Below, piece by piece: positions 4,188 to 41,200 of a stretch of DNA of 41,200 nt. How positions within the stretch are numbered: position 1 is the first letter of the stretch; every line of letters starts with the position of its first letter. The DNA comes from a virus: UHGV virus genome UHGV-0210649. One strand, 5' to 3'. The notes beneath the pieces are model-generated. The model saw nothing but the letters and a program-made list of their open reading frames with translations. It had not been told where the DNA came from and made no database searches. The translations under genes and the position numbers were made by a program.

Positions 4188-4766
4188 ATGTTCAATGTGA
4201 TGCTTGATGAACTCCCAGATATGTGGGAAGGTTTTCCGATAGACACAGACTTCCGGATCGGGGTGCAGATCTCACAGATCATGGAGGATAAAGATCTGTC
4301 GGATAATGAAAAGTGGGCTACTTCCGCAGAGCTTTTGTTCCGCGGTATCCGGCCGGATCCACCGTATTATTATGACGCTATCATGTGGTTCCTGCAGGAA
4401 TGGAATCATGATAATAATAAGAAGTCTAAGGACCGTACCAGAGTCCTTGATTATGATATTGATCAGTGGCGGTTATACAGTGCCTTTAAAGCTCAGTACG
4501 GGATAGATCTGAACACGGTTAATATGCATTACTGGCAGTTCATGGGTATGCTTACGACACTGAATGAGTGTGCATTTACCAGAGTGGTGGATGTTCGTCT
4601 TAAGAAGCTTAGGTCAAATATGACGAAAGAAGAAAAGCAGATCTTAAATGACCAAAAGACAATTTATGGTTTGGAACAGCCACAGGAGCAGATATCGGAA
4701 GATGAAAAAGTAAAGAAGAGGGAAGCATTAGAACTGTTTGAAAAAATGAGAAAAGCCCAATCGTAG
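4188..4766 (+). CDS. Gp15-family (A118-like) tail assembly chaperone
   Basis: I.TDFR, DYDID...YSAF..QYGIDL and MHYWQF motifs. Confidence 0.8.
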   Translation: MFNVMLDELPDMWEGFPIDTDFRIGVQISQIMEDKDLSDNEKWATSAELLFRGIRPDPPYYYDAIMWFLQEWNHDNNKKSKDRTRVLDYDIDQWRLYSAFKAQYGIDLNTVNMHYWQFMGMLTTLNECAFTRVVDVRLKKLRSNMTKEEKQILNDQKTIYGLEQPQEQISEDEKVKKREALELFEKMRKAQS

Positions 4767-4808
4767 CGCCTAAGAGCCAGTTACTTATTAAAGTGATTGG
4801 CTCTTTCT
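4764..4808 (+). promoter_or_regulatory. AG(A/C)GCC tandem motif plus 15-bp hairpin upstream of the tape measure gene
   Basis: tagcgcctaagagcca (4764-4779) overlaps the hairpin aagagccagttactt-atta-aagtgattggctctt. Confidence 0.65.
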
Positions 4809-4826
4809 CGTTAAGTGAGGCTTAGT

Positions 4827-7622: not shown

Positions 7623-8012
7623 ATGCTATATACACAAGGAATTTATATTGATGACATGTATTTTGATGTCCCCCTTGTTTCGGTAAAGCGAGAAGCAAAG
7701 GTTTTGGATAAATATGCCGAGCGTGAGGAAGATACAGGAGATTTATTAAGAGAACTGATCGGAGTATATCTCAATTACACCATGAATTTCGGAACTATTG
7801 ATGATGATGATCTATATGAGCGTCTTTTTGATAAACTGACGGAGCCAGTGGCTTTTCACGATGTGACATTACCATCGACCAAGAAATCATATTCATTCCG
7901 GTGTTATGTATCGTCCGTATCAGATGAAATGGAAAAAATCCTTGATGATACCGTGAAGTTTAAAGGGTTAACCTGTAAATACATAGCAAAGGCGCCGTGG
8001 AGGACACCATGA
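7623..8012 (+). CDS. Distal tail protein (Dit-like)
   Basis: Directly after the tape measure gene; 129 aa; G.L.RELIGVY.NY motif. Confidence 0.65.
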   Translation: MLYTQGIYIDDMYFDVPLVSVKREAKVLDKYAEREEDTGDLLRELIGVYLNYTMNFGTIDDDDLYERLFDKLTEPVAFHDVTLPSTKKSYSFRCYVSSVSDEMEKILDDTVKFKGLTCKYIAKAPWRTP

Positions 8013-11657: not shown

Positions 11658-11815
11658 TGGCAGCAAAGAAGCATTCAAAGAATTTTCAGAAAGTAAAGAA
11701 CTATTATAATCGCGGCTTATGGGATATTGACAGGGTATACAGTGCTGTAGGCAAGTGGATCACAGAAGCAGAGTATAAGGAGATTACTGGTTTTACATAT
11801 CCGGATAAAGAGTAA
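11657..11815 (+). CDS. XkdX-family small protein (absent from ORF track)
   Basis: MAAKKHSKNFQKVKNYYNRGLWDIDRVYSAVGKWITEAEYKEITGFTYPDKE; TAATG coupling. Confidence 0.8.
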   Translation: MAAKKHSKNFQKVKNYYNRGLWDIDRVYSAVGKWITEAEYKEITGFTYPDKE

Positions 11816-11817
11816 CA

Positions 11818-11852
11818 CTTAAGAGCCAGTAGAGAACGCTCTTTACTGGCTC
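11818..11852 (+). promoter_or_regulatory. Partial TAAGAGCCA motif plus 13-bp hairpin upstream of the lysis genes
   Basis: gagccagtagaga-acgc-tctttactggctc. Confidence 0.55.
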
Positions 11853-11876
11853 GATTATGAAAGAAAAGAGGGGAAG

Positions 11877-12221
11877 ATGATGCCGAATCCTATCATTGTG
11901 TACATACAGGCTCACTGGGTGGAGTGGCTGTTTGCTGCAGCCATCGGATTACTTGGCTTTATGTACAGACGTATCATGAACCAATTGAAAGAAGAAAAGC
12001 GAAAGAATGATGCTCTTATGCTGGGAGTACAGTGCCTTTTGAGAGAGAGCATAGTGTCCAATTACAACAAATATCAGGACAAAGACTATTGCCCTATTTA
12101 TGCCAAGGAATCCATCAAACGGGTATATGAGGCTTATCACAATCTCGGTGGGAACGATGTGGCTACAAAGCTGTATCATACCATGCTGGATATGCCGGAG
12201 GAACCAAAGGATGAGCAGTAA
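11877..12221 (+). CDS. Membrane-anchored lysis-module protein (holin/antiholin-like)
   Basis: One N-terminal TM segment; GVQCLLR and Y.AYHNLGGN motifs. Confidence 0.65.
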   Translation: MMPNPIIVYIQAHWVEWLFAAAIGLLGFMYRRIMNQLKEEKRKNDALMLGVQCLLRESIVSNYNKYQDKDYCPIYAKESIKRVYEAYHNLGGNDVATKLYHTMLDMPEEPKDEQ

Positions 12222-12516
12222 GAAACCAAGATGCGGAAGACACCCGACCTATACGAAAAAGATGATGTCCCGGATTATCAATATTGCCTTGGTAGATATG
12301 CAGTTTCCGTTTATCCTGGCTTTATTGGGGAAGAATGCGATTGCAGAAACACTGGGAGGTATTATTGCGAGCGAAGTGATCGGAGTATTTCTGGTCTACT
12401 GTGCAAAATCCTTTTTCGAGACACGGGAGTCTGAAAAAGTAAGAATGGAAGAAATGAAAATGGAAACAGGTTCGGAAGAACCGGAGTCAGAAGAAATGGA
12501 GGAAATTGAGTTATGA
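12211..12516 (+). CDS. Two-TM lysis-module membrane protein
   Basis: Likely start ATG 12211 (MSSKKPR...); two hydrophobic segments, acidic tail. Confidence 0.55.
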   Translation: MSSKKPRCGRHPTYTKKMMSRIINIALVDMQFPFILALLGKNAIAETLGGIIASEVIGVFLVYCAKSFFETRESEKVRMEEMKMETGSEEPESEEMEEIEL

Positions 12517-12818
12517 CATTACAGATTTTTTTAACAGGACTATTATTGGTGAGTATTTTGACAAGTCTTGTTACCGAAGCCATTAAGCGGATTTTGGAAG
12601 AGCAGAAAAAGCAGTATTACAGTAACACCCTTGCAGGTATTGTGGCGGTTGTCATTGCGGTTCTGGTGGATATCGGATACACCGTATTAAATAACATGGC
12701 CTTTGATGTAACCTGGGTGGTATATCTGATTGCTTTGATTGGCCTGTCCTGGTTATGTGCGATGGTTGGCTATGATAAAGTGATTCAGGCACTGTCACAG
12801 ATCCGGAGCAAATCATGA
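12513..12818 (+). CDS. Holin (3 TM)
   Basis: Three hydrophobic segments, L.TEAIK and SWL.AMVGYDKV.Q motifs; upstream of endolysin. Confidence 0.75.
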   Translation: MTLQIFLTGLLLVSILTSLVTEAIKRILEEQKKQYYSNTLAGIVAVVIAVLVDIGYTVLNNMAFDVTWVVYLIALIGLSWLCAMVGYDKVIQALSQIRSKS

Positions 12819-14751: not shown

Positions 14752-16104
14752 TCAGTAAAAATGAAAACCGCATAGTTTGCGGGTTTCCGGATCCACCTGA
14801 ATATCTTTAATATATTTTTTCCAGAAGATTTTCTTATTTTCAGCATCCAGTGAACGATATAAGTTGATCCAGTCACCCTGAAAGAAGGAGACCAGATTCT
14901 CACGTTTTTCAATAGTATTCTCGATGTCGCATACAGTGGATAGCTCCATTAATTTCTTTTCAAGCAGTTCATATTGACTTTCGTAATAAGAATCCGTGAT
15001 ACGGCCTTTCTGGTACATCAAATTCAATCGTCCCATTTCGTCATGAATTACCTTCGCATTATTTCCGGATTCCTGTTCGGAGGCAGCCATGCTTTTCAGC
15101 TTCTCAATGTCGCGCTGCAGAAAGATCAGGACATTTTCAATCAGATAATTTTCTACGGTCTTTTCCAGTATGGACGCTCCGCCATGCCGGTTAAATTTAT
15201 TCCCACAACGATATTTTATGTAGATGCTCTGACCGCCGTTTTTCAGGTTCTGTTTCTTTCGGTAACCAGTGAAGTTGTTTCCGCAGATCGGACATTTAAT
15301 CAGTGATGTAAAAATGTAAGGCTCATATTGTCCGGTATTCTGCTTAGTAGTTCCTATTGTGCGGATCTGCTCGTATTGTTCTCTGGTAAGGTACGGTTCA
15401 CACCAGTTTGGATTGCCACGGAATGAGCCGGAATACTTCTCGTTTTTAAAGAGACGGTCTATAACGTTGTCAGAGGGGGCATTTTCGCCGTATTTCATAT
15501 TTAGGTAACGAATTACGTCACGAATGGAAAAAGTCTTAAAATAACGCTCATACGCGCTCACAACGATATGCGAGACGGATTCATCCTTTTGTACATATCC
15601 TTCAACCACCTTATAGCCATATGGAGCCATGCGTCCACTGATCACTTTTCCCTGGGCTTCCTTATGCCGGAATACTGCTTTGATTCGTTCGGAGGTACGG
15701 TCACATTCATTCTGTGCAACTGCAAGCATAATATTAATCTTAAGCTGGCCATCAGCGGTGGAAGAGTCATAGTCCTCATAGATGGTTTTCCAGTTACAGT
15801 GGTGTGCATCTAAGATTTCCTGTGTATTGTGGTAGTCCTTCACATTACGGAACCATCGGTCTAATTTGGTTACCAGGATCAGATCCACCTTATTCGCTTT
15901 CACATCATCCAGAAGCCGCATAAGGTCCTTACGGTTCTTCATTTTCTTCCGGGCGGTAATGCCCTCATCTTCGTAGTAACCGACAATAACATATCCGTGA
16001 TCTTTTGCGTATTGCGTGAGATCGTCTTTCTGTGTGGCGAGGGATAAGCCCTTTTCCACCTGCAGGTCGGTAGACACACGATCATAAATGGCACAACGGA
16101 TCAT
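14752..16104 (-). CDS. int: Large serine recombinase (integrase)
   Basis: AIY.RVST..Q catalytic motif, KLDR..RN, PYGY, zinc ribbon (CPICG...YRC), coiled coil; start at ATG 16104 after GAGGAGG. Confidence 0.95.
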   Translation of the reverse strand: MIRCAIYDRVSTDLQVEKGLSLATQKDDLTQYAKDHGYVIVGYYEDEGITARKKMKNRKDLMRLLDDVKANKVDLILVTKLDRWFRNVKDYHNTQEILDAHHCNWKTIYEDYDSSTADGQLKINIMLAVAQNECDRTSERIKAVFRHKEAQGKVISGRMAPYGYKVVEGYVQKDESVSHIVVSAYERYFKTFSIRDVIRYLNMKYGENAPSDNVIDRLFKNEKYSGSFRGNPNWCEPYLTREQYEQIRTIGTTKQNTGQYEPYIFTSLIKCPICGNNFTGYRKKQNLKNGGQSIYIKYRCGNKFNRHGGASILEKTVENYLIENVLIFLQRDIEKLKSMAASEQESGNNAKVIHDEMGRLNLMYQKGRITDSYYESQYELLEKKLMELSTVCDIENTIEKRENLVSFFQGDWINLYRSLDAENKKIFWKKYIKDIQVDPETRKLCGFHFY

Positions 16105-16290
16105 TATATCATCCTCCTCATACATTTTATGGCAGCAGGGCATAAAAATGCCCGGTGCTTGTATTTCACCGGGAAAAATGATACAATTTCACTTGCGAGG
16201 TGACTGTATCGGATTTCCCGATATGGTTCCTAATCTGCTCCGGTGTTGGCGTACCGGGGCAGATTTTAATTATAGGCGATCTATCCGAAG

Positions 16291-25103: not shown

Positions 25104-25955
25104 ATGGCAGGCAGACAAAACAAAGTAGGATTGGATTACTTTGAATTGGATTGCCACATGGATGAAAAGGTTAGATTGGTACAGGCTGAATATGGACTGA
25201 AAGGCTTTGCGGTTTTCGTCAAACTACTCCAGGAAATATATGGAGGGTATGGTTATTACTGTGAATGGACTCAAGACAGGGAGCTTCTGTTTGCGTCAGA
25301 AAATGGTTTGAATGGCGGTTCCCAACAACTCTTAGGAGATATAGTGGAAGCCTGTATCAGAAGGAACATTTTTTCAGAGAGACTTTTTAAAGAGTACGGT
25401 ATTCTTACGTCCTCCGGGGTGCAGAAGCAATACCTGAAAGCTACAGTCAAGCGGGAAGTTGTAGAACTGAAAAAAGAGTACCTTTTAATTAGTGTACCTG
25501 TAAATAGGAAAAATGTGGTAATTAATTCAATTTCTTCCGGAATAAATGACATTTCTGATACCGGAAATGCACAGAGTAGAGTAGAGAAGAGTAAAGTATA
25601 TCCCCCTATATCCCCCAACGGTTTTAATTGCTTCTGGGAGATATACCCGAAAAAGGTACGGATTCTGAAAGCGGAAGAGGCATACAGGCAGGTCTTGTTT
25701 GATGATAGTTCTGTTGATGAGGAAGATCTTAAGGATGCCGCTGGCAATTATGCGGAGTCTGTGCGGATTCTGGATACACAGGAGATATACATACTCAATC
25801 CGGAAAACTTCCTGTTAAGAGGGGCATATACAGATTACCTGCCGGGTAACTACAAGAAGCCACAGAGCAGTAAGAAAGTTCAGTTTAACCAGATGATGCA
25901 TGGCAATTATGATTATGCAGCACTGGAAAAGCAAATGTTAGGAGTGGATCAATGA
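25104..25955 (+). CDS. Replication initiator (DUF4373/Lin1244-like N-terminus)
   Basis: K.GLDYF.LD, YG..G, GYY..W, ILTS.GVQK.Y; C-terminal F..FW..YPKK. Confidence 0.78.
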   Translation: MAGRQNKVGLDYFELDCHMDEKVRLVQAEYGLKGFAVFVKLLQEIYGGYGYYCEWTQDRELLFASENGLNGGSQQLLGDIVEACIRRNIFSERLFKEYGILTSSGVQKQYLKATVKREVVELKKEYLLISVPVNRKNVVINSISSGINDISDTGNAQSRVEKSKVYPPISPNGFNCFWEIYPKKVRILKAEEAYRQVLFDDSSVDEEDLKDAAGNYAESVRILDTQEIYILNPENFLLRGAYTDYLPGNYKKPQSSKKVQFNQMMHGNYDYAALEKQMLGVDQ

Positions 25956-26395
25956 AGCGAAAAGAAAATAAGGATCTGATGATGCAGATGCTTCGTGACG
26001 GAGTGCCATACAAGGAGATCGCAGAAGCAACAGGCTACAAGGTGACCTCCTTACACAGATACGCACAGGACATTGAAGAGCGGAAAGAACATCAGAACAC
26101 CGGTGTCAAAAGCTATAAGGACCTGATTATACGATGGTTTGAGCAAGGAAAGACAGCAGAAGAGATCGGGGAGCTGATTGGCTACAGTCCGGTTACGGTA
26201 AAAAACAAATACAACGAGTGGAAGCGTGAGGAGAAGTGCAGAGACGAACCGGAGGAGATTGAAGAGGTTGCTTTTCCTGAGAAGCAGTTGAGCTTTGTGG
26301 AGCGGAGAAAAGTTAAAACTTATCCAGCAACATACGGAAATAAACGGTGGATTGATATAACAGATGGGTATTTGGATAATTACGTGCCCGGATGA
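25952..26395 (+). CDS. Tandem HTH protein
   Basis: Two EIAEATGY/EIGELIGYS HTH-like repeats. Confidence 0.6.
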   Translation: MKRKENKDLMMQMLRDGVPYKEIAEATGYKVTSLHRYAQDIEERKEHQNTGVKSYKDLIIRWFEQGKTAEEIGELIGYSPVTVKNKYNEWKREEKCRDEPEEIEEVAFPEKQLSFVERRKVKTYPATYGNKRWIDITDGYLDNYVPG

Positions 26396-32818: not shown

Positions 32819-33835
32819 ATGACAGCAAAAGAGAAGGTAAGAAATGACGTTTTGTTACAGATGAGAAACCATGTAGATGCAATGACGTTGGATGTATTGG
32901 AGGATGTGATTACCAGAGTCCTTGCAGGGGTTGAGGTTGTGGAGATCGAGAGTCTTCCGACAACGATAGACGATAGCAATGCTTATGTCTGGGAATTGTT
33001 TATGCTAAAGAAAGCACCGAAGCTGTCTGAAAAGACCGTGAAGCGATACCAGGATATTGTAATGCGCTTTATAGATCAGTGCCATAAATCATTTCTGAAA
33101 GTGACCAGTATGGATGTAGAACTGTATCTGTCTAAGATCAGCAGAGACAATAATGAGACTTCACTGGATGGCCAGCGCCGGTGCTTATCCGCTTTCTTTA
33201 CCTGGATGCGTAAATCACACCTGATCGTGGAAAATCCCTGTGATGCAATTGAGCCATATAAGACCATCGAGAAACCTATAGACCACATGGAGCCGGAAGA
33301 GGTAGAGCAGCTTAAGACCGGCTGCAAGAATAAGCGTGATCGGGCGCTGATCGAGTTCTTACGTTCTACGGCTGTGAGAGTCGGAGAGGCGGAACAGGTG
33401 CGTGTCTGCGATATTGACTGGCGTACTGGTGAAGTGTCTGTATATGGAGAGAAGTCCAGACGATACAGGACAGCGTTTTTGGATAGTGTAGCAATTAAGT
33501 ATGTAACGGACTGGATCAAGACACGTGGGATTCAGTTTAACAGTAAAGAGGCACTGTTTACGGCGATCAGAGGCGATAAGCATAAGGGCATTAACCGGCA
33601 GAGCATCCGATCATCTGTTTATGCGATCAAAAAGCGGGCACAGATGGAGAGGCGCGTGTATCCGCACCTGTTCCGGAAGACTACCGCAACCAATATCACT
33701 AAGAGAGGCGGCTCCGTGCATGATGCCGGAGAGTATATTGGCCATAAGGACAACAGTACGGCTGCGAGGTTCTATACCTTTGTGGGGAAAGACCATACAG
33801 AGGAGATTTTTAAAAAGTATGTGGCTATTGTGTGA
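32819..33835 (+). CDS. Tyrosine recombinase (XerC/D-like), the second recombinase
   Basis: RDRALIEFL.STAVR.GE (R), GEK (K), HLFRKT (HxxR), IGH, ARFY (Y). Confidence 0.92.
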   Translation: MTAKEKVRNDVLLQMRNHVDAMTLDVLEDVITRVLAGVEVVEIESLPTTIDDSNAYVWELFMLKKAPKLSEKTVKRYQDIVMRFIDQCHKSFLKVTSMDVELYLSKISRDNNETSLDGQRRCLSAFFTWMRKSHLIVENPCDAIEPYKTIEKPIDHMEPEEVEQLKTGCKNKRDRALIEFLRSTAVRVGEAEQVRVCDIDWRTGEVSVYGEKSRRYRTAFLDSVAIKYVTDWIKTRGIQFNSKEALFTAIRGDKHKGINRQSIRSSVYAIKKRAQMERRVYPHLFRKTTATNITKRGGSVHDAGEYIGHKDNSTAARFYTFVGKDHTEEIFKKYVAIV

Positions 33836-33885
33836 TATAGAAGATGAAGATATAATCATAATATCAATGACATGGAGGAAATTAT

Positions 33886-34386
33886 ATGTTAAAAACGTTA
33901 CAAGTGTTGTGTGATAATGGGCTGATAGTTGGAATTATTAGTGGAATAATTAGCAGTATTATAGTGACACAGGGATATAGAATGCTGGATAAAAAGAGAG
34001 AACGTTTTCTTTATTTAAACAGAATTTATATTTATATAAAAGGATTGCGTTCAAAGTTATCGTTGTATGAAAATGGAGAAATCAGCGATGAATATATAGT
34101 GAATATATACAATTATTTAGTGCAAACAGAATTACCCAAAAAAGAGTCGTGGGTTCGGCTTCATTCTAAAGAGAAAAAAGTAACAAACGATTTTAAAAAG
34201 TTGTTCGAAAATACTCAAAGAAAAGTGTATGAATGCAAATTTGATATAGATAGCATCAAATCAGAGAAAAACGATCTGCGGAGCAGTGTAGACAAGTTGA
34301 AAAATGAAGTGATAATATATGCGATGGAAGCATTTAGAATAGAAACAGAACTTGCGAGTATTGTAAGTGAATACTACAAATATTGA
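33886..34386 (+). CDS. Low-GC membrane-anchored accessory protein (moron)
   Basis: N-terminal IVGIISGIISSIIV TM segment; AT-rich. Confidence 0.6.
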   Translation: MLKTLQVLCDNGLIVGIISGIISSIIVTQGYRMLDKKRERFLYLNRIYIYIKGLRSKLSLYENGEISDEYIVNIYNYLVQTELPKKESWVRLHSKEKKVTNDFKKLFENTQRKVYECKFDIDSIKSEKNDLRSSVDKLKNEVIIYAMEAFRIETELASIVSEYYKY

Positions 34387-34406
34387 TTGTTTTTATGGAA
34401 CATATG

Positions 34407-34435
34407 TTGCAAGTAGAACAAATAACAGATATAAT
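34407..34435 (+). promoter_or_regulatory. Sigma-A promoter upstream of terS (candidate late promoter)
   Basis: TTGCAA-17 bp-TATAAT. Confidence 0.7.
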
Positions 34436-34447
34436 TTAATTATATAG

Positions 34448-34501
34448 TAGCGCCTAAGAGCCAATATGTGGAGAAATCCATGTATTGGCTCTTTTTGTTT
34501 T
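34448..34501 (+). terminator. Leader terminator carrying the AG(A/C)GCC tandem motif, between the promoter and terS
   Basis: tagcgcctaagagcca; hairpin aagagccaatatgtgga-gaaa-tccatgtattggctctt followed by tttgtttt. Confidence 0.78.
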
Positions 34502-34523
34502 ATCAGAGAAAGGAAGTGAGATA

Positions 34524-35369
34524 GTGGAGAATTACCAGAAAGCAGAGCAGGACTATAAGGCAGGAATGAAATATAAAGACATAGCAGAAAAGTATGGGAC
34601 CACTATCAACACTGTCAAGAGTTGGAAAAAGAGGTATGCATGGAGTAGAGAAGAGGGTGCACACAAAACAGAAAAAGTGTGCACACAAAAAAGTAAGGGC
34701 GCACACAAGAAGGCAGCACTTATAGATGATGGTACGAAAGGGACATTAAAGAACGATGACTTAACGCCGGAACAGCAGATGTTCTGTATATATTACAGTA
34801 GAACTTTCAATGCAACGCAGAGTTATATTAATGCGTATAGATGTCAATACAGCACGGCACTCACAAATGGGCCTGCGTTACTCGGAAATACTCGGATAAA
34901 AAATGAAATTGAACGTTTGAAAGAAGTCAAGCGTCAGCAGATAGTAGCCGGTGCAGATGATATTGTGGAATTGCAGATGCGGATTGCCTTTGCTGATATG
35001 GGTAATTATCTATCGTTCGGGCAAAAAGAGATTACGGATCCTGATACAGGAGAGAACTTCATGGTAAGTACGGTTGATTTGAAAGAATCCGGGAATACAG
35101 ATACACAGTTAATCCATGAGGTAAAGCGTGGTAAAGATGGCGTGTCTGTAAAGTTGGCAGATAAGCAAAAAGCGATTGACTGGCTTACAAAATACTTCCT
35201 GATGCATCCGGAGAGTAAATATAAAGCAGAATATGAGCGCAAGCGTGCAGAGGTCAAGGATAATGCAGGAGAGGAGATCCTTAAGAATATGCAGACTATA
35301 GCAGACATATTAAAGAATCCGGCAGCCAATCGCAGGATAGAAGATTTTGAGGAGAAAGAAAATGAATAG
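34524..35369 (+). CDS. terS: Terminase small subunit
   Basis: G.KYKDIAEKYG.TINTVKSWK.RY.W HTH; LT..Q..FC.YY...FNATQSY..AY; GVSVKL.DK.KA; GTG start at 34524. Confidence 0.9.
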   Translation: MENYQKAEQDYKAGMKYKDIAEKYGTTINTVKSWKKRYAWSREEGAHKTEKVCTQKSKGAHKKAALIDDGTKGTLKNDDLTPEQQMFCIYYSRTFNATQSYINAYRCQYSTALTNGPALLGNTRIKNEIERLKEVKRQQIVAGADDIVELQMRIAFADMGNYLSFGQKEITDPDTGENFMVSTVDLKESGNTDTQLIHEVKRGKDGVSVKLADKQKAIDWLTKYFLMHPESKYKAEYERKRAEVKDNAGEEILKNMQTIADILKNPAANRRIEDFEEKENE

Positions 35370-36711
35370 ACCGGCGCCGTTCAGTGAACGACAGTATCAA
35401 TACTTCCTCAGGTGTATGGATAGCTGGTTTAATGTGGCAGAGGGAGGCAAACGTGGTGGTAAGAACGTGTTACAGACACTTATATTCTGCTCTCTGTTGG
35501 AAACCCATAAGAATAAAATCCATTTGGTTGCGGGAGTATCAAATGCAACGGCAAAACTGAATATTTTAGACTGCGATGGATACGGCCTGCTGAATTACTT
35601 TGAGGGAAGATGCCGAGAGGGGAAGTATAAGGACCGTGATTGTGTGTATGTACAGACCAAGACCGGAGAGAAGGTTGTCCTTGTGTCCGGTGGAGGTAAA
35701 GACGGAGATGAGAAGCTGATAAAGGGTAATACCTACGGCATGGCGTATGTGACGGAGGCAAATGAATGTCACCAAAAGTTTCTAAAGGAGGTATTTGACC
35801 GTACATTGTCCAGTACGGATCGGAAGGTATTTCATGATCTAAATCCTAAGGAAGAAGAGCATTGGTACTATACGGATATTCTTAAATTCCATGAGGATCA
35901 GCAGGAACTACATTCGGATTATGGATATAATTACGGCCACTTTACGCTGGTAGATAACATGAGCATGTCGGATGAAAAGATAAAAGCTGTGCTGCTTACA
36001 TACAACAAAGGAACAGTCTGGTACCGCCGTGATATTAAGGGAGATCGAGCAGTTGCAGAGGGAACTATCTTTCAGAGATTTGCAGATAATAATGAACCAT
36101 ACTTATATGATGATGCAGATATATTTGAGGAGTATACAGAGGATGGAGAAGTAAAGTACAGGCTGAAAAAGACACCGTTCAAGATAACGATGGGTGTTGA
36201 CTTCGGTGGTAATGGTTCTATGACAACATTCGTTCTCAAACTGTACTTTAACAGATACCATGACTTGCGGACGGCAGAAGAGGATCATATCCCACTATCA
36301 AAGGACATTGATGCGGATAGGATATGCGATAAATTTGTGGAGTTTTATCGTATGTGCATAGAGAAGTACGGGCGCGTTGATTGGGTGTTTCCAGATAGCG
36401 CCAGTACAACTATGATAAACAGTTTGAGGAGTGCTGCCAAGAAAGCAGGACTCCCATATCGGAATATCAAGGGATGCCGGAAGAATGAAATCTCGGACCG
36501 CCCAAAGACGGAAGATAAGCTATTTAATACTGGCAGACTTAAGATTAATCGACGATGTGAATACCTTCGGAAAGCGATAGGCAATTTGAAGTGGGACGAA
36601 GATCATCCGGATCGACCGGAGGATAAGAACATCGGTAACTGCAACGACTGGTGGGATGCAGAGTGCTATACATGGCTTGATTTTGTGGAACTGATAGATT
36701 TAGACAGATAA
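35362..36711 (+). CDS. terL: Terminase large subunit
   Basis: EGGKRGGK Walker A, YVTEAN Walker B, DLNP, GVDFGG nuclease motif, D.WDA. Confidence 0.92.
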   Translation: MNRPAPFSERQYQYFLRCMDSWFNVAEGGKRGGKNVLQTLIFCSLLETHKNKIHLVAGVSNATAKLNILDCDGYGLLNYFEGRCREGKYKDRDCVYVQTKTGEKVVLVSGGGKDGDEKLIKGNTYGMAYVTEANECHQKFLKEVFDRTLSSTDRKVFHDLNPKEEEHWYYTDILKFHEDQQELHSDYGYNYGHFTLVDNMSMSDEKIKAVLLTYNKGTVWYRRDIKGDRAVAEGTIFQRFADNNEPYLYDDADIFEEYTEDGEVKYRLKKTPFKITMGVDFGGNGSMTTFVLKLYFNRYHDLRTAEEDHIPLSKDIDADRICDKFVEFYRMCIEKYGRVDWVFPDSASTTMINSLRSAAKKAGLPYRNIKGCRKNEISDRPKTEDKLFNTGRLKINRRCEYLRKAIGNLKWDEDHPDRPEDKNIGNCNDWWDAECYTWLDFVELIDLDR

Positions 36712-36721
36712 GGAGAATGAC

Positions 36722-38122
36722 ATGGAACAGTGTGTAAAGAATTTTTTGCAGAAAAAAGGGTACACGGTTAACGACAAGGCCATGACAGTGATACAGGCTT
36801 GCGATGACTGGTACAGCAACCGTGTGATTGAGGACTTTCATAAGCGTAAGACGCTCAATGCGATTCCGTATGAGTTATCACGGCTTAATTTTGGTAAGCG
36901 GTGCTGCTCGGATGATGCGAACCTGTGTGAGGTGTTGGAGATTAATGCCGGTGATGGAGAACAGGGGAATTTTGTCAATGAGGTATTGAACAAGAGCGAG
37001 TTTAACACCCAGTATCGTAAGCAGTTGGAAAAGACCTCGGCAGATGGTACAACAGCCTGTTACATCAGGCTGGATAATGCGACCTTTATGGATAACAACT
37101 CTGTAAAGGGTGGAATCATTAAGCTGAATTATGTGGAAGCGGATGCGTTTATGCCGTTGACTGTGGAAAACGATATCGTAATAGAAGCAGCCTTTTCCGG
37201 ATCCGGATTGAGCAAGGGAAAGAAGCAGACCACGCTTGTACTGTTTACGTTGGGGGATAATGGATTATACACTGCCGAGACACACGTATTTGATGATAAG
37301 GGTAATGAGTTAACCGATCAGGAAACGATTGTGCAGCTCGGAGATGTGAAGCCATTCGCAGTAATGCGTAATGCAGAGGTAAATAACCTGGATGATATGA
37401 CCGGGTATGGTCTGCCTAAGCTGTGGGATGCCATTCCGGCGCTTAAGGTTGTGGATCTGTGTTATAACGTCCTCTTTTCCGATCTGGATAAAGCGGAGAA
37501 GATTATTCTTGTAAATGAACTGCTATGTGAATTTGACGAGAATGGCAAGCCTAAAATGACCCCAGAGCAGAAAAAGCTCTTTGTCCTTGTTGGTGAAAAA
37601 CTACCAGATCCACAGGATAAAGCGTTGATACAGGAATACAACCCAGAGATACGTATAGACCAGGTTACCAAAGCCTTTGAGCTGGCATTATCCCTGTTAT
37701 CCATGTCCTTTGGCTACGGTACCAAGAAGTACAGCTTTGAGAATAATGGACAGATTACTACAGCAACCGAGTATGTTGGAGAACGTCAGGATCAGATGCA
37801 GGAGCTCAACCGTCAGAGACAGGAAGCAATCCGGTACATACAGGATATCTGCAGGGCAGTGATGTGGTTTGCCAATACCTTTCAGGGCAAAGCATTCAAC
37901 CTGGATCAGGAGATCCTTGTAGATTTCGATGATAGCTATATCACAGATCGGGAAGCTGAATTGGAGAGAAAGAGAAACGATGCACTTGCATTTGATATTC
38001 CGGAACTGACAGTTTGGTATCTCATGGATGCATACAGCCTGTCAGAAGAGGAAGCAAGAGAACTGGTAGAGGCTAAAGTGGAAAAGGAAGAGCAGGACAC
38101 AGGCGGAGAGGAAGAGGATTAA
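36722..38122 (+). CDS. Portal protein (A118-like)
   Basis: Follows TerL; I.EYNP.IR, TATE, V.FDDSYI.D motifs. Confidence 0.88.
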   Translation: MEQCVKNFLQKKGYTVNDKAMTVIQACDDWYSNRVIEDFHKRKTLNAIPYELSRLNFGKRCCSDDANLCEVLEINAGDGEQGNFVNEVLNKSEFNTQYRKQLEKTSADGTTACYIRLDNATFMDNNSVKGGIIKLNYVEADAFMPLTVENDIVIEAAFSGSGLSKGKKQTTLVLFTLGDNGLYTAETHVFDDKGNELTDQETIVQLGDVKPFAVMRNAEVNNLDDMTGYGLPKLWDAIPALKVVDLCYNVLFSDLDKAEKIILVNELLCEFDENGKPKMTPEQKKLFVLVGEKLPDPQDKALIQEYNPEIRIDQVTKAFELALSLLSMSFGYGTKKYSFENNGQITTATEYVGERQDQMQELNRQRQEAIRYIQDICRAVMWFANTFQGKAFNLDQEILVDFDDSYITDREAELERKRNDALAFDIPELTVWYLMDAYSLSEEEARELVEAKVEKEEQDTGGEEED

Positions 38123-40035
38123 TGCTGTCAGAAGAACAACTTGAAATCATATCTGAAACCATTGCGCCCCTGTTCCAGTATTTAGAGCATGAGGTAATTG
38201 TGGATATTGCCCGCAGGATTGCAAAGACGCTTACTTATAGCCGTACTGCAGAGCTGCAGGCAATGTCTATGGCAGACCTCGGCTATAGTCCGGCACGGAT
38301 TCGGAAAGAAGCTATGAAGATTCTCAATGCGGATCCGGAGTATCGTAAGGCCGTAGCGAAGAATACATTGGAATATAAGCGCGAGATCCGGAATACGATT
38401 AATGATATTACCAGGGAAGCATACAAAGCCAATGATGATATTGTGGCAGGTGCCGGTAATATGGCATGGATCAGTGACCTTGCCGTGTGGAAGAGTGTTG
38501 GTAAGGAGTTAAAGGATCATTCTTTTTTACAGCAGCTTGTGGATGCATTTGCAGCACAGACTGCCGGAGAACTTAAGAACATGACACAGAGTACCGGATT
38601 TAAAACCATGAGCGGATATGAGGGCATAGAGAACGCATACCGCAGGGAATTGGATAAGGCTGTGATTAAGATCTGCTCCGGAACATTCTCCCAGGATAAA
38701 GTGATCCGTGATGTGGTGCATGATCTGGCACAGAGCGGGTTGCGGTCCATTGATTATGCATCTGGTTATAGTATGCAGCTTGATACGGCAGCCAGACTGT
38801 CGATCAGAACTGGATGCCATCAGCTGGCAGGAAAGATACAGGATAAAAACATTGAACAGACAGGAGAAAACCTTGTATATGTATCGAAGCACCGTGGCGC
38901 ACGTAATAAGGGGATAGGCCATGCCAACCATGAGCAGTGGCAGGGCAGGGTTTATTACATCAAAGAGGGGCAGGATTACCGGGAAGAGGCGGACCGTATC
39001 GGACAGGATAGTATTACAGACCTGTGGAGAGCAACCGGTTACAGTGCAGATGGTGCACATGAGGACGATCCGGAGGGACTTTATGGGTATAACTGTCGGC
39101 ACAACCATTATGCATGGTTTGAAGGGGCTTCCAGTTTCCCAAAGAATCATGATGAAAAGGATTCGGCACCGGTAACCATCAATGGAAAAACCTATGATTA
39201 TTATGCTATGACGCAGAAAATGAGGTCTATGGAGCGGAATATCCGGGCATTAAAAAGGGAAAAGGAAGCTCTTACTACACTGGGAGCGGACACAACAGAG
39301 ATTAATGCCAGGATCAAAAGTAAGACAGCGGAGTATAAAGAGTTTTGTAAGGCTTGTGGTGTGCCGGTAGCTACAAGTAAGCTCCGGTATGAATGCGGCA
39401 CGTCTGACTTAAAGAATACCAAGGCGTGGAAAGGAATGCAGAACATAGAAGGGGAGAATGGTTATAAAGAGTATCGTGTTATCGGGGATAACGGTAAGGC
39501 GGTATCGCTTGGAGAAAAGGTGACCTTAAGTACAATGATCGCTAAAATGCCGTCAACAGTACGAAGTGCTTTATCGGATGTTACATTCCATCTTAATAGC
39601 AGTGTTGGAGGTGGATACTGGTACGGCCATAATGAGATTTATCTACCGAGTAACGTAACAGATCGGGAGTTTTACCATGAGGTAGGACATTGCCTGGAAG
39701 AAAAGCTGTTTAATAAAAAAGAAGTGGATGCTTTAAAAAAGAATTTGGTACAAGGTCTTACTAAAGATGATATAATAATAAAAACAGGTATGGATAGTAC
39801 TGGAAATACCATGAAAATATTTGTATTAAACAGTCCGAGATTTATAAAGGAATACCAGGGAAGGTTATATGTGGAATCCGTAAAAGAAGCTCTGAATTCA
39901 GATGGCAGCATAAACACGGATGTACTCGGAGAGGTAGTATCTGTTGCTGTGGAGCATTATTTTATGACACCGAGAGCTACGAAGAAATATTTCCCGGATA
40001 TGTATAGAATCGTGGAGGAAACCTTGCATGAGTGA
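38122..40035 (+). CDS. Minor capsid protein (Phage_min_cap2/MuF-like) with C-terminal HExxH metallopeptidase-like extension
   Basis: VS.H.GAR...H..WQG.VY, GL.G.NCRH, Q..R..ER.IR..KR; then FYHEVGH near aa 517-523. Confidence 0.82.
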   Translation: MLSEEQLEIISETIAPLFQYLEHEVIVDIARRIAKTLTYSRTAELQAMSMADLGYSPARIRKEAMKILNADPEYRKAVAKNTLEYKREIRNTINDITREAYKANDDIVAGAGNMAWISDLAVWKSVGKELKDHSFLQQLVDAFAAQTAGELKNMTQSTGFKTMSGYEGIENAYRRELDKAVIKICSGTFSQDKVIRDVVHDLAQSGLRSIDYASGYSMQLDTAARLSIRTGCHQLAGKIQDKNIEQTGENLVYVSKHRGARNKGIGHANHEQWQGRVYYIKEGQDYREEADRIGQDSITDLWRATGYSADGAHEDDPEGLYGYNCRHNHYAWFEGASSFPKNHDEKDSAPVTINGKTYDYYAMTQKMRSMERNIRALKREKEALTTLGADTTEINARIKSKTAEYKEFCKACGVPVATSKLRYECGTSDLKNTKAWKGMQNIEGENGYKEYRVIGDNGKAVSLGEKVTLSTMIAKMPSTVRSALSDVTFHLNSSVGGGYWYGHNEIYLPSNVTDREFYHEVGHCLEEKLFNKKEVDALKKNLVQGLTKDDIIIKTGMDSTGNTMKIFVLNSPRFIKEYQGRLYVESVKEALNSDGSINTDVLGEVVSVAVEHYFMTPRATKKYFPDMYRIVEETLHE

Positions 40036-40195
40036 TAGCAGCTATTGGAATAAAAAAATTATTGATCTGCCGTGGACAGAAGAGAACCAGGAACTTTTTG
40101 CCGCTCATGTAGATATGGAAAAGGAAGAGGAGCGGTTAAAGCAGGAGGAAAATGTGGAAAATAATGGGACACGAAAAAAGGATAATAATTTATAG
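40028..40195 (+). CDS. Small acidic protein (55 aa), candidate immunity partner
   Basis: Overlaps the minor capsid stop; RBS GGAGG; MSDSSYWNKKIIDLPWTEENQELF... Confidence 0.55.
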   Translation: MSDSSYWNKKIIDLPWTEENQELFAAHVDMEKEEERLKQEENVENNGTRKKDNNL

Positions 40196-40203
40196 ATATA
40201 TCA

Positions 40204-40232
40204 TTGAAACGAAACATTAGTTCTGCTATAAT
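40204..40232 (+). promoter_or_regulatory. Sigma-A promoter of the zinc-finger gene
   Basis: TTGAAA-17 bp-TATAAT with TGn extension. Confidence 0.75.
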
Positions 40233-40252
40233 ATCCTCATGGAGGGTTACAT

Positions 40253-40420
40253 ATGTTGCCAAAAGGATATTATTGGTGCAGATGCCCTCGATGTGGAAAT
40301 CCTAAGATGCAGGTATTACGGAATGATACCGCACTTGTCAATTTCCCGGGGTACTGCAAAAAGTGTAAAACAGAATCATTAATGACAATAGAGCCTAAGC
40401 GCCAAATAGTAAATTCGTAG
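40253..40420 (+). CDS. Cysteine-rich KTR / Com-like zinc-finger protein (55 aa, absent from ORF track)
   Basis: MLPKGYYWCRCPRCGNPKMQVLRNDTALVNFPGYCKKCKTESLMTIEPKRQIVNS; W..CP.CG...R.DT.L.NFP.YC.KCK.E pattern; RBS GGAGG. Confidence 0.8.
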   Translation: MLPKGYYWCRCPRCGNPKMQVLRNDTALVNFPGYCKKCKTESLMTIEPKRQIVNS

Positions 40421-40450
40421 ATCGAATTGCTGTTTGGCGTTTTTTTTATT
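40389..40450 (+). terminator. Terminator with the AG(A/C)GCC tandem motif overlapping the 3' end of the zinc-finger gene
   Basis: tagagcctaagcgcca; hairpin gcgccaaatagtaaattcg...cgaattgctgtttggcgt followed by a run of T. Confidence 0.78.
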
Positions 40451-40459
40451 GTCAGATCA

Positions 40460-40531
40460 GGCGGGATAGAGCAGTGGTAGCTCAATGGCTTCCTTAGTCA
40501 TGAGTCGGTGGTTCGATTCCATCTCCCGCAA
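40460..40531 (+). tRNA. Atypical tRNA or tRNA-like element, anticodon CCT (nominally Arg-AGG), Met/fMet-like body
   Basis: GCGGGA/TCCCGC acceptor stem, GAGC/GCTC D arm, ATGGC/GTCAT stem with TTCCTTA loop, GGTGG-TTCGATT-CCATC T arm; no encoded CCA. Confidence 0.7.
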
Positions 40532-40581
40532 TTTCCCATATCGCAGAAAGTGCGATTCAAAAAATATTTTAGGAGGATGAA

Positions 40582-41187
40582 ATGAAGAACATTTTTGAAA
40601 TCATGAAAGAGTATGGACTTGAAGTGCCGGAAGATAAAAAGAAGGACTTTGAAAAGGCTGTGCTCGAAAACTACAAGACCATGACGGATTATGACAATCA
40701 GACCAGGAAGCTGGACGCAGCGAATGATACGATCAAAGCGAATGACACCGCCATGAAAGACTTACAGGATAAGTTAGACGGATTCAAGGATGTAGATGTA
40801 TCTGGTCTGAATCAGAGAATCAAGGATCTGGAAACAGAAAAGACGAATATCCAGAAGGATTATGATGCCAAGATTGCAGATCGTGATTTTAATGATCTTG
40901 TGAAAGAAAGCATTGCTGCTGTCAATGGTAAGAACCCTAAAGCAATCACTGCTTTACTGGACGTGGAAACCTTAAAGGCATCCAAGAACCAGAAAGAAGA
41001 CATTGCGACAGCACTGAAAGCATTGACCGAGAAAGAGGATAGCAAGATGCTCTTCGGGGAGCCGGAACCTAATCCGGTAGGAACAGGATATTTAATTGGA
41101 CGGGTGAGAGGCGGCAATAGCACAAGCGCAGATGAAGCTGCCATGAGAGCGGCTATGGGACTTCCACCTGTAAGTGAGACGAAATAA
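40582..41187 (+). CDS. Capsid scaffolding protein (GP20-like)
   Basis: Coiled coil, KNPKAITALLD...L, LF; directly precedes the capsid gene on the circle. Confidence 0.85.
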   Translation: MKNIFEIMKEYGLEVPEDKKKDFEKAVLENYKTMTDYDNQTRKLDAANDTIKANDTAMKDLQDKLDGFKDVDVSGLNQRIKDLETEKTNIQKDYDAKIADRDFNDLVKESIAAVNGKNPKAITALLDVETLKASKNQKEDIATALKALTEKEDSKMLFGEPEPNPVGTGYLIGRVRGGNSTSADEAAMRAAMGLPPVSETK

Positions 41188-41200
41188 GGAGGAAAACTAA

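Follow-up and report, generated by a model that had tools for sequence, protein, structure and literature searches.

A zinc-ribbon gene and tandem-repeat terminators co-occur in Lachnospiraceae phages as a candidate late antitermination module

The virus genome UHGV-0210649 (41,200 nucleotides, hereafter the window, meaning the whole stretch of DNA that was analyzed) carries a short gene for a Cys_rich_KTR zinc-ribbon protein (hereafter KTR) and a tandem (A)G[A/C]GCC repeat that is placed at the base of predicted hairpins along its late genes. The gene and the repeat constitute a real, conserved protein-plus-RNA module, and sequence comparisons indicate that it is most probably a late phage antiterminator of a new type, one belonging to the known class of RNA-binding antiterminators. 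More specifically, we think it probable that KTR is a site-specific RNA-binding antiterminator, possibly one triggered by the SOS (DNA damage) response. The features on which this proposal depends are as follows.

40253..40420, + strand: gene for the 55-amino-acid (aa) Cys_rich_KTR zinc-ribbon protein (PF14205), the candidate antiterminator, scoring 49.1 bits against a cut-off of 25.5.
40204-40232, + strand: predicted sigma-A promoter of the KTR gene, TTGAAA-17-TATAAT with TG, an 11/12 match to consensus and the best in 33800-41200.
34407-34435, + strand: predicted late-operon sigma-A promoter, TTGCAA-17-TATAAT, ending 12 nucleotides (nt) before the 16-mer at 34448.
34449..34502, + strand: site T1 in the terS leader, AGCGCC (34449-54) as repeat 1 and AGAGCC (34457-62) as repeat 2, the latter at the foot of a hairpin of 17 pairs, and a U-run.
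40390..40448, + strand: site T2, AGAGCC-TA-AGCGCC in the last KTR codons, with a hairpin across the stop codon and a U-run, before the tRNA, scaffold and capsid genes.
4764..4812, + strand: site T3, a tandem repeat from the gp15 stop codon with a hairpin at 4774-4803, before the tape measure gene.
11820..11860, + strand: degenerate site T4 after xkdX, with one repeat and a hairpin and without a U-run, before the lysis module.

The motif TAGMGCCTAAGMGCCA is matched exactly at 4764, 34448 and 40389 and with three mismatches at 11813, always on the + strand, and 100 shuffles gave a mean of 0.56 and a maximum of 3 matches of this type. A relaxed tandem pattern recovers only 4764, 34448 and 40389, with none on the - strand. 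At all four sites in the window, the second AG[A/C]GCC repeat forms the base of the 5' arm of the hairpin. An earlier reading made from the sequence alone had described four sites, and its 16-mer, sense-strand placement and hairpin register are borne out, whereas the site at 11820 has neither a U-run nor a first repeat and for this reason is not a terminator in the window. At the T4 position, relatives have a full tandem site with a U-run. The U-run of T3 is weak (TTTCTCGTT). Between late genes there are three strong sites with a hairpin and a U-run, and the tandem repeat is present at every one of them, but not at the terminator that follows the lysin gene. The KTR site matched no Rfam family either at the gathering threshold or by E-value.

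Membership of the 55-aa protein in the KTR family, also proposed from the sequence alone, was upheld by the profile score given above, and all 50 aligned relatives match Pfam Cys_rich_KTR. A CxxC-20-CxxC arrangement is invariant in the alignment, as are a W, a P and a T. The structure model is all-beta with four beta strands (predicted local distance difference test score of 85); neither a sequence search (best E 0.023) nor Foldseek gave a PDB match, and matches in a viral structure library are to uncharacterised cysteine-rich proteins only. PF14205 is broad, comprising 1231 representative proteins at E up to 0.001, and the literature searched, which did not cover subscription-journal papers on Tn916 regulation, yielded no function for KTR proteins or for this RNA site. 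The predicted promoter likewise agrees with the earlier suggestion that the gene has its own sigma-A promoter. Promoter-like sites are not in excess in the region overall (21 versus 18.2 in shuffles), and a -10 and a -35 element occur upstream of the KTR gene in 24/38 relatives versus 25/690 background windows.

Constraint on the site at the RNA level was assessed with 87 distinct sites, two doubtful calls having been dropped. Two features that are absent from the search pattern, an A before repeat 1 and a purine after repeat 2, are each present in 86/87 sites, and stem position 2 is A-U in 81 sites and C-G in 6. The spacer between the repeats is 2-4 nt, repeat 1 is unpaired or weakly paired, and the inner stem (17-45 nt) is variable in sequence and length and still folds (mean z -4.2). 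RNAalifold applied to 22 terS leaders revealed compensatory changes in 4/10 pairs with the GAGCC/GGCUC base fixed, in keeping with the earlier claim of a hairpin with the repeat on its 5' arm. The predicted terminators have energies of about -20 kcal/mol and 5-8 U in 8 nt, and the ribosome binding site is not part of the hairpin but comes after it. A protein-level cause of the motif was rejected because, among relatives, each of the three reading frames is used where the repeat falls within the KTR gene, and because there are copies beyond the stop codon (the repeat lies entirely after it in L194 and L216).

The surroundings of the sites differ along the operon. A TATAAT-like -10 box is found within 40 nt of 31/36 upstream sites, most of which begin 3-34 nt after the box, and near 3/16 sites at the gp15/tape-measure junction and 4/34 at the KTR 3' end. 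Two arrangements are present in these data: a conserved site overlapping the 5' arm of a putative intrinsic terminator upstream of the genes that would be controlled, as in RNA-binding antiterminators, and a promoter directly followed by a predicted terminator before late genes, as in lambda Q-type control.

Co-occurrence of the gene and its sites was examined from two starting points. A gene-first test with 75 loci carrying KTR relatives, in 20 groups, yielded 16 tandem sites away from the KTR gene on the strand of the gene, 0 on the other strand and 0 in three shuffles per locus. These distant sites sit in the terS leader, ~5.5 kb upstream of the gene, and at the gp15/tape-measure junction, ~5 kb downstream of it, and three phage records that were read nearly whole have a full site before the lysis genes and one chance-like match elsewhere. 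The portal-first test began with 140 loci in 69 clusters at 90% identity, of which 49 were evaluable and 20 were dropped since the scaffold gene or 3 kb of upstream sequence was missing. The strict pattern places sites away from the gene in 31/38 KTR-positive versus 0/11 KTR-negative clusters, the pairing of gene and motif that the sequence-only reading had predicted. The misses have TGAGCC variants or other spacers. With a relaxed pattern set post hoc (G[ACT]GCC-N2-5-G[AC]GCC) the counts are 38/38 versus 1/11, the single KTR-negative cluster having a GC-rich match without the usual layout; the same pattern finds an own-gene site in 35/38 clusters and one minus-strand site in 1.0 Mb. The presence of KTR is scattered on a quickly built portal tree, where well-supported branches force a minimum of six changes, and its distribution therefore does not reflect one inherited event.

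Several further observations concern the leader and its neighborhood. Insertions between portal and minor capsid genes in L257 (+3572 relative to portal) and L262 (+3395) end in new promoter-like sequence plus a repeat terminator, which suggests that the leader travels as a unit. The Rfam small RNA SpF41 lies directly before terS in L329 (7729-7835) and L348 (7724-7836), and between the leader site and the packaging genes in L398 (4633-4747); in these three SpF41 phages the gated site is shifted 1-2 kb upstream. A skipping-rope RNA is found at L348:13253-13349, a short distance upstream of the KTR gene, and this RNA is reportedly described in a 2026 preprint as a tRNA mimic.

Some of the KTR-negative phages have a different protein and a different RNA at the same places. 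In 5/11 KTR-negative clusters, the slot between the minor capsid and scaffold genes is occupied by an unrelated protein of 42-63 aa, modeled as one helix plus two strands and without a match in Pfam, PHROG, NCBIfam or PDB. The 3' terminator of this gene carries Rfam gut-2 (RF02990) in 5/5 clusters and the terS leader does so in 4/5, and gut-2-type RNA is present in 0/48 KTR-positive representatives. Gut-2 consists of two AAUUGG-loop hairpins, the second overlapping the terminator. It is like the KTR site in occupying the same terminators, in sister phages without KTR, but is a hairpin pair rather than a GAGCC repeat, and its partner is an unrelated alpha/beta protein; the two-hairpin layout resembles the dual-hairpin ANTAR target (PMC3369931). 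The second family has at least four changes on the portal tree, and the gene and the distant leader change in concert, as a cognate protein-RNA pair predicts. We regard the second family and gut-2 as a candidate second antitermination system, in which this orphan RNA would gain a partner protein. Examples of the pair are at L270:13594-13722 and 7714-7761, and others are in L354, L374, L388, L359 and L397-L403.

The proposed recognition of the repeat by KTR can be compared with that of Mu Com, a CCCC zinc finger and translational activator of mom, which opens a translation-inhibiting hairpin of one gene and whose SELEX motif is NGAGNNCC(N)2-3GAGNNCCNN (PMC6483171). Both proteins are small four-Cys zinc ribbons (~60 aa), and a similar bipartite GAG..CC element with a 2-3 nt gap lies within the gene of each, just past the last Cys: counted from the first base of the last Cys codon, the Mu site within com begins 23 nt on, and the KTR site 27 nt on in 26/34 cases. 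They differ in that the KTR core is GAGCC, not GAGNNCC (the two central bases are absent), and in that KTR has 3-4 sites per genome, at predicted terminators with U-runs, whereas Com acts on the translation-inhibiting hairpin of one gene. The profile similarity between KTR and Com is weak (hhalign probability 47.6% over 33 columns), and profile scans of the window KTR protein returned no Com-family match. A KTR-like protein of phage Cormatin matches the same PHROG as Com (phrog_6417), and Cormatin has a repeat and terminator just before its HNH and terminase genes. The link to Com drawn from the sequence alone is weak in terms of sequence; KTR may be likened to Com in recognition, yet we do not file it as Com because its hairpins do not hide ribosome binding sites. 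Com-type translational control was also rejected as the main role because the ribosome binding site is outside the hairpin and a tRNA often follows.

The ANTAR (EutV), BglG/SacY CAT-RAT and HutP systems have a protein on a doubled RNA element that overlaps or lies inside a terminator and keeps the terminator from forming, as proposed here for KTR, but these are unrelated, signal-activated proteins of metabolic operons (PMC3369931, PMC12591593), and the KTR site differs in being a short direct repeat that lacks an alternative antiterminator hairpin. A passage search of PMC12591593 (a 2025 review) gave no mention of zinc, phage, KTR or transposon. Neither an ANTAR domain nor its dual-hairpin target was found for KTR (no Pfam match; repeat 1 unpaired or weakly paired), and scans of the window gave no CAT or HutP domain, RAT stem-loop or NAG repeats. 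In lambda, the promoter pR' is immediately followed by the terminator tR', which guards the late genes, and Q is a processive factor that binds both DNA and RNA polymerase. The present system is unlike both lambda Q and N-nut in that each terminator has its own site and the protein is unrelated; library scans of the window proteins gave no Q-family match.

We propose that a pair of KTR molecules would occupy the tandem (A)G[A/C]GCC repeat of nascent RNA and obstruct pairing at the foot of the predicted terminator hairpin, whereupon RNA polymerase would read into the late genes. We infer RNA binding (from Com), the two protomers, and read-through rather than added termination. Keeping both repeats single-stranded costs a median of 15 kcal/mol, with the stem ending 6-8 nt from the U-run in 68/91 sites, and a stem that stops 6-8 nt short of the U-run would be enough to prevent release. 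The consensus late promoter would be followed by T1 within about 20 nt, KTR expressed from the promoter of its gene would then open T1, which precedes the packaging genes, and T2, T3 and T4 would gate the capsid, tail and lysis genes in turn. Since read-through at T1 transcribes the KTR gene, such a circuit would have positive feedback.

A consensus promoter on an activator implies that a brake is needed in the lysogen. Speculatively, host LexA might repress the KTR promoter until DNA damage occurs, and two boxes in the window are relevant to this step.

40212-40223: SOS-box-like AAAC-N4-GTTC, in the spacer of the KTR promoter.
34398..34409, no strand assigned: SOS-box-like GAAC-N4-GTTG (7/8), overlapping the -35 of the terminase promoter.

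The box consensus is GAAC-N4-GTTC/T (PMC4234289). Boxes matching GAAC-N4-GTTC at 7/8 positions, often in the spacer and none at 8/8, are present in 10/38 KTR promoters versus a shuffled mean of 0.95, and recA has two such boxes in 4/5 genomes of the likely host genus. The trigger is considered speculative because five of the ten boxed promoters are close kin. The small share of promoters with a box and the 19 SOS-like 7/8 matches in the window as a whole also count against it, and a box at the terS promoter is not enriched (3/37, shuffles up to 4).

KTR genes are also widespread in mobile elements. PF14205 is found in 51/151 related genomes and in 474 plasmid records, and the gene follows tet(M), tet(S) and tet(O), the last in pTet. 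By position only, the KTR gene between tet(M) and an orf9-like repressor gene in Tn916-like DNA is Tn916 Orf6 (PMC7288454). Transposon-type KTR genes end in AGAGCC-AGACGC-NN-AGACGC-AGAGCC plus a hairpin and U-run, so that the EPDAKTQSR tail of the family is an in-frame reading of the RNA site. Sites in transposon DNA are nearly all at the KTR gene's own end. One locus, L406 (G034:C33:1-12000), has five KTR genes in 12 kb with cargo genes between them, three with a terminator site, in a cassette-like array.

Several points weigh against the proposal that KTR is an antiterminator acting at these sites. The site definition itself demands a hairpin and a U-run, and because of this the hairpin and U-run features are partly circular. 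The relaxed pattern was chosen after the misses had been seen, and the portal seed alignment was taken from KTR-positive phages. The weak profile similarity to Com belongs here as well, and only 14/29 evaluable transposon-type KTR genes keep a site. In addition, sequence alone cannot fix the sign of the effect, that is, read-through versus added termination. KTR could bind the same RNA sites and enforce termination in a Nun- or TRAP-like manner, silencing leaky sigma-A late promoters in the lysogen, where its near-consensus promoter could allow expression; this account fits all of the co-occurrence data equally well. We nonetheless consider it unlikely, as binding a repeat within the 5' arm competes with the stem, and the hairpins look strong unaided (about -20 kcal/mol), so that an opening factor would be needed, and none was found in library scans.

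The most direct counter-evidence comes from sites without the gene. A motif-first scan gave 100 stretches, 28 of them with KTR in the fetched flanks; of the other 72 loci, 50 were submitted to a search of the entire record, which covered 49 records, with a strong KTR match in 6, a weak match to other zinc ribbons in 14 and none in 29. Among the 15 records that are at least 90% complete, 13 are without a clear KTR gene (2 strong, 7 weak, 6 none), the weak matches in seven being another zinc ribbon without its own site. One phage, G176, keeps two promoter-proximal sites with intact pairing and has no KTR gene. The pairing of gene and motif claimed from the sequence alone must be qualified to this extent, in that complete phages also carry sites without the gene. 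These orphan sites may be relics that moved with terS or lysis modules, may be served in trans or may be read by another factor, and KTR is common enough in likely host genomes (36/68, nearest genus) that supply in trans could explain them. The same phages favor an account in which a host or other trans factor reads the repeat and KTR is a linked passenger or helper travelling with its terminator. We judge this rather unlikely, given that sites 5-6 kb away appear and vanish with KTR across repeated changes on the portal tree and are replaced together with it.

The near-complete phages that have promoter-proximal repeat terminators and no KTR gene are represented by L235-L246 (G170, G176, G193 and G202), and G176 has contractile-tail-type genes. 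A Com-like zinc-ribbon gene (phrog_6417, E 3.5e-5) lies directly before the likely portal gene at L247:18308-18502 in a group of ~60 kb phages. This zinc ribbon was not accepted as the partner of the orphan site, the match being weak and the gene itself lacking a tandem GAGCC site.

DNA binding is known for zinc ribbons, and a -10 box precedes most upstream sites by 3-34 nt, as would be expected if KTR bound the direct repeat as DNA and acted at initiation or loaded on RNA polymerase like lambda Q. This is quite improbable, however, because most sites at the gp15/tape-measure junction and the gene 3' end have no nearby -10 (counts above), the spacer varies over 2-4 nt with orientation fixed and repeat 2 always in the terminator stem, and several sites along one operon argue against a single processive modification. 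More improbable still is an explanation without protein binding, in which upstream open reading frame (ORF) translation modulates the hairpins or the repeat is a recombination point for module exchange: T2, T3 and T4 do overlap or follow stop codons, and in transposon regions cargo genes do alternate with multiple KTR copies (5 in 12 kb, G034), but T1 has no room for an upstream ORF, translation leaves the conserved repeat and the invariant W, four Cys, P and T unexplained, and sites are restricted to terminators on the sense strand.

A broader scheme can be offered only tentatively, and we rate it as doubtful. Lachnospiraceae phages might use interchangeable late antiterminator cassettes of a small protein and its cognate RNA (a Com-like zinc ribbon with tandem GAGCC, or an alpha/beta protein with gut-2), each an SOS-triggered positive-feedback switch; the same zinc ribbon might, as Tn916 Orf6, gate tet-gene read-through into the regulation module of conjugative elements, and phage-transposon cross-activation would be possible. 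If the antitermination proposal is true, then gut Lachnospiraceae phages without a recognised late activator would have a late-gene switch based on terminator-by-terminator antitermination by a zinc ribbon, a route not described in the literature searched. It would also provide the first function and binding site for Pfam Cys_rich_KTR, whose members include the gene that follows tet(M), tet(O) and tet(S), and a partner protein for the orphan gut-2 RNA. With 55 aa of protein and a site of 14 nt, the pair could be used in Gram-positive bacteria as a compact switch for transcription.

The genome in the window is that of a temperate phage, in which serine integrase/immunity and replication genes are followed by terS, terL, portal, minor capsid and scaffold, and in which the major capsid, tail, tape measure and lysis genes run from position 1. 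This gene order suggests that the window is circularly permuted, the late operon apparently carrying on from scaffold to major capsid at position 1. The late features beside the KTR gene are as follows.

34524..40035, + strand: genes for terS, terL, portal and minor capsid, which follow T1, with portal named by gene position.
40460-40531, + strand: tRNA-Arg(CCT) gene, directly behind T2, the terminator of the KTR gene.
40582..41187, + strand: scaffold gene, after which the operon presumably resumes at position 1.

A tRNA gene, mostly Arg or Met, lies behind the KTR terminator at the T2 position in 21/38 relatives, and close relatives exchange the tRNA gene at this slot. Portal relatives in named genomes are mostly Lachnospiraceae prophages. 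No ArpU, RinA or sigma family was above cut-off among the window proteins scanned (58 in one scan, 18 in another), as had been stated from the sequence alone, and the ORF at 25952-26395 has weak matches to helix-turn-helix/sigma-region-4 domains. The holins that were earlier said to follow 11820 are an assignment by inference, no library having named a product for 11877-12221.

Besides the serine integrase (14752-16143), the window has a tyrosine recombinase gene at 32819-33835, close to where the early region ends, and relatives repeatedly have homologues of it upstream of terS. The ORFs at 12231-12434 and 12513-12818, which separate the presumed holin from the endolysin, look irregular: they are short, and one of them has overlapping alternative frames.

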